A stretch of DNA of 64,000 nucleotides from Eledone cirrhosa (GCA_964016885.1 OZ024743.1:68820001-68884000), one strand, 5' to 3'. Positions 26,411 through 57,949 are shown, numbered from the stretch's first letter. Translations and numbers: made by a program. Notes: generated from the sequence alone by a model not told the origin.

Positions 26411-26513
26411 GTGAACTAACTGTTGTGCAATCAATTCTATATATATATATATAATATATATATATATATATATACAGTCACGAAACATAAGTCAATTGTA
26501 TGAACTCGTATTT

Positions 26514-26569
26514 ACCGCTATATATATTTCGATAATAGCCATAGTGTGGCTATGACCTCATCAGGCAGT
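26514..26569 (-). ncRNA. type I hammerhead ribozyme
   Basis: actgc-CTGATGA-ggtcatagcc..ggctattatc-GAAA-tatata-TA-gcggt. Confidence 0.8.
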
Positions 26570-28243
26570 TAGCAATTTCTTAGATATGCCAGCTCTGGGA
26601 TTTTGGTGTCGAAGGTTTTAGAGCCTTGGGACATATGAGCGTGTTAGGGATAATTTAATGTTGTCAGCAGGAATAATCTTAATTCTCATTGGTCAAAGAG
26701 GCAGGTGGTGTTGTGAAGTTCAAACCGTCCGGCAAAATGGCAATAGTTCCACATGACTGATTTTCACAAAAAGCATTGAGGAATTTAAGTTGGGTGGTAA
26801 AACTGAAAATTATAGTTAGAGTCAAATACTTGAAAAGTTTACATATAAAAGGACCTATGTTGGTTGACTTGTGCATACACTCACACCCACCCCCACAGAC
26901 ACACACACACACATCTACTCACGCAAATCCATGCAGATGTGTATATATATGTATGTACACAAAGGTGCGTATGTATATACAAACGAGGCCCTCATATTCA
27001 AGTATATGGCAGACTTAAAATGAGATGGGTGTTATTTTTAAAGAAAAGTAAACTGGGTGTTTGCAAAAAAGAAAAATTAAAAAGGAAAAATTATTGTCCC
27101 GTAGCTCCTCACATACTGGGCAAGCTCTAATGAACTAGCGAGATACATGAAATTGGCAGCCCCCCCCCTCCTCTGTAGTGGTCCCTATACTCCGTACCAA
27201 TGACCAATGGGCAACAACACCCACCCATAGTTTGTGGTCCCCAAAGTGGATTGTCCACCACATCCTCTACTGGTTAGGAGTCAGCAAAACCACGTTTTTT
27301 TAACCCACACAACACGAGCGATTATCCTAAGGTACTAACCCTATACGCATGAATGCGTGCCCGCAATCGTGCGTTATGTGTGTATACCGGGATTAGGTGA
27401 ATGTGCGCACTTATGTGAACGCAATGAAATACTAATACCCCAGGTTGCATTTGAAAAATGTTCAAGTGTATGCTTAAGAGTATATTTGTGTATGCTCTCT
27501 TGTATGAATGCACTTGTATATATAGACATACACATGCATCCAGAGGTATACAAGTGTTGGTGGGTGCGTGTACCTGTATATGTCTGTACTAAGCGAATCA
27601 CCTAAGCTGCAAAGCCCCTAAGCTATTGCTGTGAAGATATATATCACACCCCACTTTTGTCTAGTCTAAACAATAATTTTTTACTTTTTTATTTTTCCTT
27701 TTTTTCAAACACCCAGTTTACTTTTCTTTAAAAATAACACCCACCTCATTTTATGTCTGCCATATACGTGATACGCATCTGTATGGATTTGTGTGTGTAG
27801 ATGTGTGTGTCTGTGTCGGTGGGGGTGAGTGTATGTACAAGTCAACCAACATATGTCCTTTTATATGAAAACCTTCTAAGTATTTGACTCTAACCGTTAT
27901 TTTCAGTTTTACCACCCCACTTATATTCCTCAATTTAAGAATGCCCTGTACTATCGAATTTCATACTATAAACCTCAATTGAATATATATCTGACCAGGA
28001 ATGCTTTTTGTGAAAATCAGTCATATGGAACTATTGTCATCTTGCCGGACGGTTTGAACTTTACGAAACCACCTGCCTCTTTGAGGTAAAATAACAATCC
28101 TACTAGCTTCTAAAAACTGACCAATGAGAATTAAGATTATTCCTGCCGACAACATTAAATAATCCCTAACAAGCTCATATGTCCCATGGCTCTAAAACCA
28201 TCAACACCAAAAACCCAGAGCTGTCATATCTAAGAACTCTCTA

Positions 28244-28299
28244 ACTGCCTGATGAGGTCATAGCCATACAATGGCTATCATCGAAATATATATAGCGGT
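28244..28299 (+). ncRNA. type I hammerhead ribozyme
   Basis: actgc-CTGATGA-ggtcatagccatacaatggctatcatc-GAAA-tatata-TA-gcggt, then AATAAA. Confidence 0.8.
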
Positions 28300-28757
28300 A
28301 AATAAAGGATTATGAGATCATACAATTTACTTATGTTTCGACACTATTATAACTCCGGAATCTATATCTTCGGTGAGTGATCCCTATCCGCATAGGAAGT
28401 ACTGGATTTTACCAACACTTTTTTGTTTATATATATATATATAAATATATATATATATATATATGCACATATATATGCACATATATATATATATATATAT
28501 ATATATATATATATATATATATATATATATATATATATATATGGAAAGTTATATTTAAATTGTTGGGTTACAACTAGTAAATATTTATAACTGATATAAA
28601 AGCACTCGACAAGTATTTGGAGTATATTTACGATATTAAATAAATGGAAACTATATTTATAAAACCATATTTATTTCACTGCCAATTCAACTTTTCAAAT
28701 ACAAGTCGATGTTGTACGGTATGTCAAATCTATTTATCTATAAAACTGTTTATATTG

Positions 28758-28823
28758 TATTTTGTCTGAGGAAGGCATAGCATATTGTTAATATGATATC
28801 CCTGAAATATATATAATGAAATA
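28758..28823 (+). ncRNA. type I hammerhead ribozyme
   Basis: tattttgt-CTGAGGA-agg..catatt/aatatg..cct-GAAA-tatata-TA-atgaaata. Confidence 0.7.
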
Positions 28824-28950
28824 AATATGGTTTTATAAATATAGTTTCCATTTATTTAATATCGTATATATATATATATATATATATATATATATATATA
28901 TATATATATATATATATATATATATATATATATATATATATATATATATA

Positions 28951-29068
28951 TGGATCTGGCTGATTCTACTTCTGTGAGTTCTTTCAGACACGGGTGATAA
29001 AATTTGCTTGCTCCAGACGAAACACCCGTGTCTGAAAGAACCCGCAAGAGTAGTATCAGCCAGATCCA
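28951..29068. repeat. inverted repeat overlapping a decayed long-stem-II hammerhead (about 29027-29117, +)
   Basis: tggatctggctga..cagacacgggtg / cacccgtgtctg..tcagccagatcca; cgtgt-CTGAAAGA...GACA-caattg-TA-gcacg. Confidence 0.7.
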
Positions 29069-29360
29069 TACAAGGACCATGTCTCGAGCTACCTGCCGGC
29101 GACACAATTGTAGCACGCAATAAATTAAGTCCAGATGCATCACTGATTTTTCGTTTTCTTTATACTATCTACACTCTACTCTACTCTGAATATCGAGTGC
29201 TAATTTTGGCATACCGCCTATGGAAACACCATATCTATCATTATACACAACTATATATATATATATATGTGTGTAGAAGTACTATTTAAATTGTTGTGAT
29301 ACAACAAGCAAATATTTTTATAACTGATATAAAGCACTCAACAATTTATTGGAGTAAAAA

Positions 29361-55416: not shown

Positions 55417-55577
55417 CAGCACTGTGTGTCAATAATTGTCACAGGTGTAGTGTTTGTACCAGAGTGTTCAAGTCGCTGGCTGGACTAAATAGACACACTC
55501 ATTCAGCGCATCGGTAGGGGTTCTCCTACATGGATATAAAGTAGTGGCCGTACTCGAAAACGAGTTGGCAGCCACCA
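55417..55577 (+). mobile_element. 5'-truncated copy of the ~530-bp retroposon
   Basis: Matches the 3' 160 bp of 32109-32639. Confidence 0.85.
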
Positions 55578-55621
55578 TATATATATATATATATGTATAT
55601 AGGTATATATATATATATATA

Positions 55622-56162
55622 TTGGCATCTAAACTGGCAACCCCACCAAGATTTCTTGATGAGGATGGTGACTTTGGACATCCTGCAGGACTAAACACAA
55701 AACCTGTCAAAGGGCAAAGGAGCTCTTAAGTCAATGGCCATCCAAAATCACCGGGAGAGATGACTCCTTAGCCTTTGTCAAGGCAGAATTCTAGGAGAAG
55801 GAAAACTCTTATATAACACCTGCAACCCTGATGGTATCCAATGATGTTGACTTGTTCTTATTTTTGGTAAATATCATCTTGTTTAAGAGAGTGGGACTGC
55901 CTTTGTGCAGTGCCTTTGCTCACTATAAAAGCTTCACGGCAAAGGCATTGCTTTATATCTGGAGATCTCTCTGCACTTGTCGTCACATGGTACCATGGAC
56001 CCAGCACTACGTGTCAATATGTGTCACAGGTGTTGTGTTTGTACCAGAGTTTTCAAGTCGCTGGCTGGACTAAAAAGTCACACTCGTTCAGTGCATCGGT
56101 AGGGGTTCTCCTACATGGATATAAAGTAGTGGCCGTACTCGAAAACGAGTTGGCAGCCACCA
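55622..56162 (+). mobile_element. ~540-bp non-autonomous retroposon in (TA)n
   Basis: Second full copy of 32109-32639. Confidence 0.85.
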
Positions 56163-56616
56163 TATATATATATACAGAGAGAGAGAGAGAGAGAGAGAAA
56201 AAGAGAGAGAGATGTTTACACCATATGTATATATTCGATCATCGCGTCGATCGTACCCCGAGCTGGTCGCCAAAGAAACGTATGTAATATGTCTAATAAA
56301 TTCTAATTCGTCACACCACTGATTCTCCATTTCTTATGTAATATATATATATATATATACTATAGTGACACAACTTCGAGTGATTAGCGGCCTTTCGACA
56401 CACCTGATCAATGAAACAATTGTTAGTACTGTAAATAAAACCCTTTTTGTACAGCCGACCATGTTATTCTTCAATCTTTAACTACTATATATATATATAT
56501 ATATATATATATATATATATATATATATATATATATATATATATAATAGTAGCTAAGATGCTTCCCTAGGCGGTATGCCGGTTGAGCACTCTATGCTCCT
56601 ACGGAGCAGAGTATGG

Positions 56617-56838
56617 TAGAATGGAAAACGAAAAATCAGTGATGCGTTTGAACTCATTTTATGGCTTGTTACAATTGTTTCCCCGGCGAACAGCTCTAGG
56701 TGCGATCTGTGTATGGATCGACCTGACTCTGGATTCATAGGTTCCTTGGACAAGCCAATTGATTTCGCCAGGGTAACAATTGTAACACGCAATAAATTGA
56801 GTTCCGATGCATCACTGATTTTTCGTTCTCCATTCTAT
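56617..56838. repeat. tail-outward inverted pair with decayed long-stem-II hammerhead (56663-56756, -)
   Basis: ggcttgt-CCAAGGA-...-GAAA-caattg-TA-acaagcc; related to the 29.0, 34.3 and 56.25 kb copies. Confidence 0.7.
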
Positions 56839-57125
56839 ATATACATATATATATATATATATATATATATGGTGTAAACAAAGTTTCATATTATTAAAAT
56901 CTATGTGCTACCAATGGTGTCCAGTCATGGCCACCACTGTATAATGGTCCCATGTACGTAAATTATCATCCTTTTTCCAATCTGGAGTTTTTTTATAACT
57001 CCAACTATTAGGCTAATTTAATCAGTCAAAAATACGAAGGAAGGTCTATTTCACTTTCTGATTTTTCAAATTCTCCCCTGAATAATACATTTAGAAGGCC
57101 ATTCACTATGAGATTTTCATTAAAT

Positions 57126-57505
57126 ATACAGTATATTGCTAAAAATACTATACATACATTCATGTATATCGCTATTTCAGAGCACCAATACTACTACCTA
57201 ATTTTGGCTGGACCTGCAATCGCTCTGTTTAATCGGCTCCTGGTTATTTCTGAAATTCTATAAGAATCCAGCTCCTATAATTATCGGCAAAGGCAGCGCA
57301 GTGTGTGGTCTTGATAAACGCTAACAAGCGAGAAACAGATGGCCACTCTCTGTTACTTGTGCCGAGATTAAGTAAGTGACATAGTCACTACTTTAAAACT
57401 CATAGTGATTGGTCTTCTAAATGTTTTTAGTTAAACATACAGTATATTGCCAAATATACTATACATACATTCATGCATACATCGCTATTTCAGAGCAATA
57501 ATACT
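57126..57505. repeat. ~311-bp unit with ~70-bp terminal direct repeat
   Basis: atacagtatattgc..tatttcagagca at 57126 and 57437; weak HHR-like remnant at 57305-57346. Confidence 0.7.
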
Positions 57506-57949
57506 AATCCTATATATATATATATATATATAAAATCAAGGGAAAGCAAATAAAGTAAAAATTTCAAAATTATTTTTTTTAAATTCCCTGTTCTTACTAT
57601 ATGTGCTTTCACCGCAATTTCAAATCCCAAACGAATAGATAATCCAGGCGGATTTACATTGAGAAAGAGATTATCGTCAGAAGGCATTTCTCTCTCAGAG
57701 AATATAAAATTTCCGAGTTAAACATTTTAAACTGGCGCGCGCCAGTGAATTTTAACAAATTTATTTTGAAATTTTTGCTATATTTGCTTTCCGTTAATTT
57801 TATATAATCTGGCTTGTTAATTTATTAACTTGCCATTGAACCACACTGGCATATGGTCGGACTATACTTGTATCCCTGTGTGTATTAATTACATGTAGGA
57901 ACACATACTTTTATTATATATATATATATGAATTTGGATGTAATAGTAT

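Follow-up and report, generated by a model that had tools for sequence, protein, structure and literature searches.

Small one-tailed foldbacks at (TA)n sites in Eledone cirrhosa as a known insertion form of Penelope-like elements with a proposed twin-hairpin start signal

In this study, we analyzed a 64,000-nucleotide stretch of the Eledone cirrhosa genome (GCA_964016885.1 OZ024743.1:68820001-68884000), called the window below and numbered from its first letter, which is 37% GC and dense in (TA)n and in remnants of LINEs (long interspersed nuclear elements) and of Penelope-like elements (PLEs). Our subject is the small inverted pairs, or foldbacks, that it contains: two arms joined at their 5' ends, with the 3' ends, mostly marked by a predicted hammerhead ribozyme, pointing outward. 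A sequence-only reading had listed eight such pairs, and all of them were recovered by self-BLAST and arm alignments, with arms 84-100% identical without gaps. That reading is incomplete: it misses the asymmetry by which one arm only carries a tail, the hairpin that lies at each presumed start site and the connection with the Hydra clade of PLEs, and its list is short by about nine pairs (A, C2, X35.1, X36, Y, Z43.7, W, a probable 43/47.5-kb pair and an 8.1-kb pair).

The eight listed pairs are as follows. Pair B (26476..28427; arms 26481-27097/27670-28340, 91.9% identity) has a tail-less left arm (-) and a long right arm (+) with a tail at 28347-28427, hammerheads at 26519-26564 (-) and 28249-28294 (+), and a hairpin from 28352 (+). 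Pair C (28543..28864; arms 28631-28678/28817-28864, 100% over 48 bp) joins a short, tailed left arm (-) with a hairpin at 28599-28631 (-) to a long, tail-less right arm (+) with a hammerhead at 28766-28815. Pair D (29268..29587; arms 29357-29471/29473-29587, 96.5%) is a near-perfect palindrome centred at 29472, with hammerheads at 29413-29461 (-) and 29483-29531 (+), and its left arm (-) carries the tail and a hairpin (29331-29363). Pair E (34093..34487; arms 34173-34326/34334-34487, 86.9%) has hammerheads at 34226-34306 (-) and 34354-34434 (+), a tailed left arm (-) and a right arm flush on (TA)n. The left arm of pair F (36240..36796; arms 36247-36425/36526-36710, 91.0%) is tail-less, and its right arm (+) contains a hammerhead at 36641-36681 with one core mismatch, start site 1 at ~36706-36710 and a tail with a hairpin (36705-36763). 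Pair H (50629..51430; arms 50629-50773/51121-51284, 95.1%) is a partial tandem of a 493-bp unit (+) with a flush end on (TA)n, a hairpin at 50947 and a hammerhead at 51107-51169 with two core mismatches; its inverted arm (50629-50773) is cut off and adjoins another PLE. Pair G (56546..56844; arms 56617-56690/56764-56837, 87.8%) has a long, tailed left arm (-) with a decayed hammerhead (56670-56749, -, two core mismatches) and a short, tail-less right arm. Finally, pair I (57533..57914; arms 57533-57590/57743-57800, 84.5%) has a left arm flush on (TA)n and a right arm that continues 114 nt; an intact hammerhead core with stem II is present (-, 57680), and neither convincing stems I/III nor the hairpin motif was found there.

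A scan of 20-58.5 kb with our own hammerhead descriptor (score at least 8) gave 15 hits, against none in the reversed/complemented sequence and none in each of three shuffles. Twelve of the 15 lie within inverted pairs (in both arms of B, D and E and in one arm of C, F, G and H), and all 12 face outward. Thus, the uniform tail-outward polarity proposed earlier holds, with none of the eight pairs inward, and the attribution of ribozymes holds in at least one arm for seven of the eight, pair I having the core only. An Rfam scan returned no hammerhead or other relevant hit, only microRNA-like repeat matches below gathering scores. The pairs are non-coding insofar as they contain no open reading frame (ORF) above 100 codons (longest 42-100 codons, none for reverse transcriptase (RT) or GIY-YIG) and two tandem families have a complete short unit. 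The outer ends were within 2 nt of a run of (TA)4 or longer in 14 of 16 cases (exceptions E-left and H-left), compared with 3.5% of background positions; tailed ends were positioned by eye at the (TA)n run, so that only the tail-less ends provide an independent test. Any target-site duplication would be masked by these (TA)n runs. The minimum size of ~220 bp given previously needs correction, as it describes the palindromic core; whole insertions with tail measure ~300-400 bp (C, D, E and G), and the smallest foldback measured here is Z43.7 (159 bp).

The additional pairs include the coding element A (23533..26437, +), a decayed PLE with an inverted, tailed arm at 23533-24132 (-) and a body that ends flush on (TA)n after a hammerhead at 26372-26401. 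It has the same architecture and hairpin motif as the miniature pairs, and an ORF for RT with a C-terminal GIY-YIG domain is found in it and in its neighbours. Its tail (23533-23600) contains a 22-nt direct repeat of the 3' part of the hairpin, which resembles slippage or re-initiation at the start of reverse transcription. Pair C2 (28952..29251), of the E/G family, has a tailed right arm (+) and a left arm that begins at an internal AT beside (TA)n. In pair X35.1 (34870..35206, left end approximate), the long left arm (-) is tailed, the right arm is flush on (TA)n and a decayed hammerhead lies at 35110. Pair X36 (35265..36232) consists of a 658-bp non-coding unit (-) in partial tandem, with a hammerhead at 35554-35620 and a tail-less end at 35265; its inverted arm (+, 35992-36232) is tailed and stops ~7 nt before hairpin 2 (35792-35819, -). 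Y1 and Y2 (36845..37150) are two small palindromes with a common centre, inverted around (TA)17, with one tail-less and one tailed outer end and a hairpin at 37072-37108 (+). Z43.7 (43671..43829), of the F family, joins a tail-only left arm (-) to a right arm (+) that runs from the hammerhead to site 1, with ~4 nt of overlap. W (47691..48722) is a partial tandem (-) whose hairpins 1 and 2 lie at 48369 and 48263, respectively; its tailed end (47691) maps 7 nt before hairpin 2, the inverted arm (+) extends 42 nt across a central (TA)n, and no hammerhead was found in it. W had been considered as a tail-inward counter-example (48.6 kb) and was rejected, as the hairpins set the strand and W reads outward. 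The 8.1-kb foldback (8060..8240) has a body (-) with a hammerhead core at 8146, flush on (TA)n, and a tail-only arm (+) with a hairpin at 8163-8196. A tail arm with a hairpin (42951..43069, -) has 15 nt in common with a tail-less end at 47503; the two are probably, at lower confidence, the ends of one insertion around a coding element at 45.0-47.35 kb. This second decayed coding PLE (44992..47350, -) contains the Hydra marks DKT, a CxCX5C-type linker and GIY-YIG, and such marks were also seen by eye in the translation of an element at 49.6-50.5 kb. By eye, against the description in PMC8557442, the coding copies contain RW, DKS/DKT and the CxCX5C linker and no CCHH, and the decayed ORF at 24.1-26.1 kb resembles Hydra-1_Obim of Octopus bimaculoides. 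With RWK-like/DKT motifs, the CxCX5C linker, no CCHH and a (TA)n target, these coding PLEs are predicted to belong to the Hydra clade.

Comparison of the arms revealed a strict asymmetry. In all 11 clean pairs (A through G, X35.1, X36, Z43.7 and 8.1 kb; C2, H, I, W, the 43/47.5-kb pair and the 42-bp inversion located at 31.5 kb were set aside), exactly one arm was flush on (TA)n, at a position called site 1, and the other continued ~65-105 nt to a TA, called site 2. Under an independent 50:50 choice this gives p=0.0005, or p=0.002 (12/13) with Y1 and Y2 taken separately, and no two-tailed pair was found among the window pairs. The tail was on the long arm in B, G and X35.1, and on the short arm in A, C, Z43.7 and 8.1 kb. 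In these last four, the short arm has a tail missing from the long arm, and the long arm in turn has sequence missing from the short one; neither can therefore be a simple fold-back copy of its partner, and priming must have occurred twice. Arms that consist of the tail alone and start at site 1 occur in Z43.7, 8.1 kb and probably 43.0 kb, and in one read joint to 36712. The inner arm ends (28817, 29472, 34330, 43758 and 56763) cluster at the hammerhead: arms of D, E, G and Z43.7 begin 6-24 nt before its core, and the short arm of C begins 2 nt past its cut site.

The asymmetry bears on an alternative in which an antisense RNA primes itself (as proposed in PMC3846280) or a cDNA folds back, and an endonuclease then trims the DNA beside the motif, the tail being a resolution product (as suggested in PMC8557442). 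The tight centres of D (1 nt), E (7 nt) and Y (5 nt) would suit it, as would the D. virilis tail that is needed for endonuclease recognition (as cited in PMC11167929). However, plain fold-back cannot place the tail solely on the short arm, most centres have 26-570-nt spacers that vary between copies, and the PLE protein PAc (Poseidon, Anolis carolinensis) produces both tail ends in vitro as RT starts on sense RNA, as described in PMC11167929. We regard this alternative as rather improbable.

Within families, the centres also vary among copies (between C and D; among E, G and C2; between F and Z43.7), as do arm lengths. Because the centres differ between copies, the foldbacks are not miniature inverted-repeat transposable elements (MITEs), and the earlier view that they are MITE-like in appearance and retroelements in origin is upheld. 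Short, non-coding inverted ends in (TA)n are what TA-targeting MITEs or foldback DNA transposons, with chance ribozyme motifs in their terminal inverted repeats, would look like, and pair I, with no firm hammerhead or motif and one copy in the window, could qualify; the varying centres (many read joints among them), the asymmetric ends and the presence of the same ends on solo, tandem and coding PLE copies largely refute such an origin for seven of the eight listed pairs, and we consider it very unlikely. A PLE origin, in contrast, fits the head-to-head arms, the hammerheads, the (TA)n targets and the coding element A, in line with the inverted PLE architecture that the sequence-only reading had invoked.

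We then considered reads of four runs aligned to 35265-36947, one of which (X1) may be the assembly's source. In two restriction-site-associated DNA (RAD) libraries with the same species label, 2200 and 2339 reads exit family F at 36710 into (TA)n, and 1553 and 1855 reads show the Y tail on left-pointing arms. Among the joints listed, antisense-to-sense joints lead from 36284-36288 to at least 11 points within 36636-36762, two further 5'-joined joints start from 36674, and two are ambiguous in polarity (36644/36706 and 36652/36670). Five opposite-strand joints (from 36336, 36342 and 36372) were dropped as colinear family reads that map in mirror image on a palindromic reference. In runs X1, X8 and X9, a roughly sixfold increase in read depth coincides with the 5' edge of the F hammerhead, suggesting that most F copies begin there; depth in X8 and X9 is subject to restriction-site bias and was not used as copy number. 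Thus, raw reads support joints of the same type in other individuals, whereas the window's own centres are spanned by no read or contig piece among those listed for this 1.7-kb stretch. The unspanned centres, together with Y and W being centred on (TA)n and the 100% identity of the C, W and J arms over 42-48 bp, might point to assembly or library chimeras, or to inverted duplications by breakage at (TA)n cruciforms. Yet most arms differ by 3-16% with separate indels, their ends lie at the same motif-linked sites, joints of the same type recur in contigs and raw reads of other individuals, and the outer ends of Y are site 1 and the tail; artefact or breakage is, in our view, hardly credible.

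A bulged hairpin, RCTC...GAGY-RCT, opens the tail: RCTC lies 5-12 nt past site 1 after T/A-rich bases, and is followed by a complementary GAGY downstream and mostly then by RCT. Of the 14 tailed arms, 13 contained it, representing 10 of the 11 families, compared with 1.6% of background positions. The inner stem pairs at 89% in the window, where it is closed by A-U in 11 copies and by G-C in five. Since the motif was first noticed in the window, we used as held-out tests the 8.1-kb pair and a marine set of 78 Hydra-type loci from metagenome contigs (the best 80 of 415 matches), with 12 long relatives aligned; an endonuclease query in a word-index protein search had no match. A hammerhead follows the ORF in 44 of the 78 loci, and by eye 22 of these 44 continue into the motif (19 without near-duplicates), 10 reach (TA)n first and eight are too short. 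In this set the motif is sense-specific, with a density of 3.7/kb over the 400 nt upstream of the ORF and 1.0/kb over the 600 nt downstream, compared with 0.13/kb within the ORF and 0.04-0.22/kb on the antisense strand. The marine inner stem pairs at 72% with a 2-nt bulge, versus 23-38% in other registers and 38% (maximum 48%) in shuffles. Covariation was far above that of slid registers (99% of cells paired, 13 two-sided changes), and 0 of 500 shuffles matched it, a comparison that related sequences may inflate. Folding energies of single tails were unremarkable (z 0.1 to -2.0, 17/17), and the structural claim rests on covariation rather than stability. This retention of pairing while the sequence varies is a further point against trimming of DNA beside the motif, for which it can be said that site 1 is itself TA-rich and that the hairpin could be single-stranded DNA or RNA.

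The hairpin is conserved 0-12 nt past both types of end. In marine loci with at least 150 nt upstream (n=42), the strict pattern identified two copies 55-83 nt apart in 17, one copy in 10 and none in 15, and in intact units the copies are 55-106 nt apart. The 3' tail corresponds to the first hairpin of the next unit, and is identical to the 5' copy in six of the 11 loci that have both. Among 15 informative marine ends in real flank (from 29 loci, leaving out 13 whose 3' copy reaches the contig end and one 14-nt chance match), 11 stop 0-6 nt before hairpin 1 (five, two of which are variant stems read by eye) or hairpin 2 (six). In the window tandems X36 and W, the tailed end likewise lies ~7 nt before hairpin 2. 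A covariance model built from 40 marine copies alone ranked the window tails first (best E 1.8e-6, six hits at E<0.02), and also found hairpin 2 of X36 and oriented W. By eye, three of six Hydra consensi in File S7 of PMC8557442 show the motif and a fourth shows a variant; two stop shortly after the ribozyme. By these comparisons, the hairpin is a putative cis signal common to coding Hydra elements and non-coding passengers, and that pair I lacks it. Two further marine observations concern ends: the 3' ends of L032 and L041 lie inside the hammerhead itself, 65-86 nt before hairpin 1, and L075 (790-3005) has a 185-bp inverted arm with exactly one tail, an architecture as in the window.

Taken together, we think it probable that the foldbacks are truncated integration products of Hydra-type PLEs and their hammerhead passengers, in which both strands of a (TA)n target prime on one RNA at two starts set by hairpins. 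A tandem or read-through RNA would present, in order, hammerhead, site 1, hairpin 1, site 2 and hairpin 2. The RT/GIY-YIG protein, probably as a dimer, would dock on the two hairpins and nick both (TA)n strands, and each 3'-OH would anneal to the short, U/A-rich sequence that immediately precedes a hairpin and be extended. The site-2 cDNA would carry the tail and the site-1 cDNA would not; the former may halt at site 1, giving a tail-only arm, or displace the other cDNA, giving overlapping arms. Both cDNAs would end prematurely, in many cases close to the hammerhead's 5' edge, and their 3' ends would be joined by host repair into a palindrome, so that every foldback would be made anew at insertion. 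The geometry and the conservation are observed; binding, the dimer, the TA pairing and strand displacement are what we infer. Priming by both strands of a cut TA site, already suggested by the sequence-only reading, agrees with the evidence and with the nicking and extension of both strands by a PLE protein in vitro (PMC11167929). The common centre of Y1 and Y2, inverted around (TA)17 between a site-1 end and a tail, is as expected if a finished foldback had been transcribed and re-inserted, with a DNA-level duplication as the alternative.

Several observations weigh against this mechanism. First, the overlap between arms reaches ~550 bp (B), and a single RNA could yield this only by strand displacement or as a multimeric template; moreover, in E and F each arm is at least as close to a third copy as to its partner. 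Second, Y1 alone is tail-less, the second arm of C2, W and H begins at an internal site, and pair I has no motif. Third, the motif count in the window is post hoc, four of the 44 marine hammerhead loci have neither the strict motif nor (TA)n past the ribozyme (by-eye classes, eight being too short), four of the 15 informative marine ends lie elsewhere, and a clear inverted 3' arm occurs in one of 78 marine loci only (L075, one-tailed), the contigs being short. Finally, G-U and A-C counts (12 vs 8) do not discriminate an RNA from a single-stranded DNA hairpin, and the PAc start site shares no homology with the cut DNA (PMC11167929), in contrast to the TA pairing proposed here. The first group would be accommodated if the same enzyme, hairpins and starts were used and each arm were copied from its own RNA, one per half of a protein dimer, as long overlapping arms would then form without strand displacement and the E and F arms need not be closest to each other; the GAGY-RCTC sequence is moreover self-complementary and could pair two RNAs. 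On the other hand, two RNAs do not by themselves yield one tail in 11 of 11 pairs or the tail-only arms at site 1 (Z43.7 and 8.1 kb), and within A, B, D and G the two arms match one another more closely than they match third copies. We consider the use of two RNAs unlikely.

Some other copies in the window touch on these elements. A direct tandem at 38301-39357 has a ~424-bp non-coding unit with a hammerhead (-, 38944-38974) and is retrozyme-like, with no inverted arm or hairpin motif found. A Neptune-like PLE remnant (30290-31960; CX4CxxC and GIY-YIG) has a hammerhead at 30467-30495 and a perfect 42-bp internal inversion (31533-31618), and the hairpin motif was not found in it, a hint that the motif is clade-specific. 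A ~585-bp family (32089-32639 and 55417-56161) has (TA)n on both sides and in one instance forms a partial tandem whose units are separated by TA; neither a hammerhead nor a hairpin was detected in it, and its origin may be RTE-like. Solo copies at 39400-40815 (B family), 41900-42614 (A-like), 43930-44150 (unnamed family), 47525-47660 (Y-like) and 56220-56341 (E family) end at site 1 or with a tail, and no inverted arm was detected in them.

Head-to-head arms, a one-sided tail and (TA)n targeting have been published for PLEs, so the foldbacks are not a new element. The account in PMC8557442 covers the inverted 5' copy, the tail of 30-40 bp that one end carries, the targeting of (TA)n and the Hydra clade, and treats the mechanism as open; PMC3846280 presents head-to-head as the usual form and proposes antisense self-priming. 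The window insertions thus have in common with these endonuclease-containing (EN+) PLEs the head-to-head, 5'-truncated copy, the tail at one end, the hammerhead in the end repeat and (TA)n, whereas they differ in size (160-400 bp, no coding DNA) and in tails of 65-105 nt rather than 30-40; in the passages of these papers compared here, neither a twin hairpin at the limits of the tail nor a strict one-tail rule is described. PAc, which belongs to another clade, nicks and extends both target strands, as is likely here, and two internal RT starts bound its tail, RNA 3' of the start is required and a dimer is predicted, again as in our proposal; its starts are located in a single AC-rich stem-loop inside the ORF, and the passages of PMC11167929 compared here contain no repeated hairpin and propose no link to inverted arms. 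Animal non-LTR (long terminal repeat) retrozymes have been linked to PLE ends and are thought to use PLE proteins (bioRxiv 10.64898/2026.07.22.740005). Their short, non-coding, tandem units with type I hammerheads may be represented here by X36 (658 bp), H (493 bp) and the 38.3-39.4-kb repeat, although the retrozyme-like tandems of the window (X36, H and 38.3 kb) are only partial and other families occur as truncated ends; retrozymes are described there as head-to-tail arrays and monomers, and inverted arms, tails and start signals are not analyzed in the text compared. In the literature searched we found no description of the twin hairpin or of two starts on one RNA; an earlier mention may exist in Repbase, in subscription papers or in figure supplements (PAc Fig. 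S2, Hydra alignments). The twin priming that Ostertag and Kazazian reportedly described for L1 in 2001 has the second target strand prime internally on the same RNA, giving a 5' inversion, and its arms are said to barely overlap, the internal site being random. In the foldbacks, by contrast, both sites would be fixed by hairpins and the arms often overlap.

Therefore, the foldbacks are a known form of PLE insertion, and the proposed twin-hairpin start signal and the one-tail rule appear to be new. How the inverted arms and the one-sided tail originate is a question that PMC8557442 leaves open, and the proposals published so far disagree. A twin hairpin past both types of end offers a concrete cis element to mutate, with the prediction that, if the hairpin is moved, the end moves with it. 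PLE RTs are the closest relatives of telomerase, and this kinship makes an RNA structure that sets template starts of wider interest. Our broadest proposal, which we hold with about even confidence, is that a clade-wide twin hairpin docks the dimeric, telomerase-related RT of Hydra PLEs and fixes two starts behind a short UA patch for alignment, with both strands of the cut copying one RNA; this would explain the tail, the head-to-head arms and the (TA)n targeting together, with at least 10 non-coding families hijacking the system and foldbacks being copied again (Y1+Y2). For annotators, the motif makes it possible to identify MITE-looking palindromes as Hydra-PLE products and to orient copies that lack a ribozyme.

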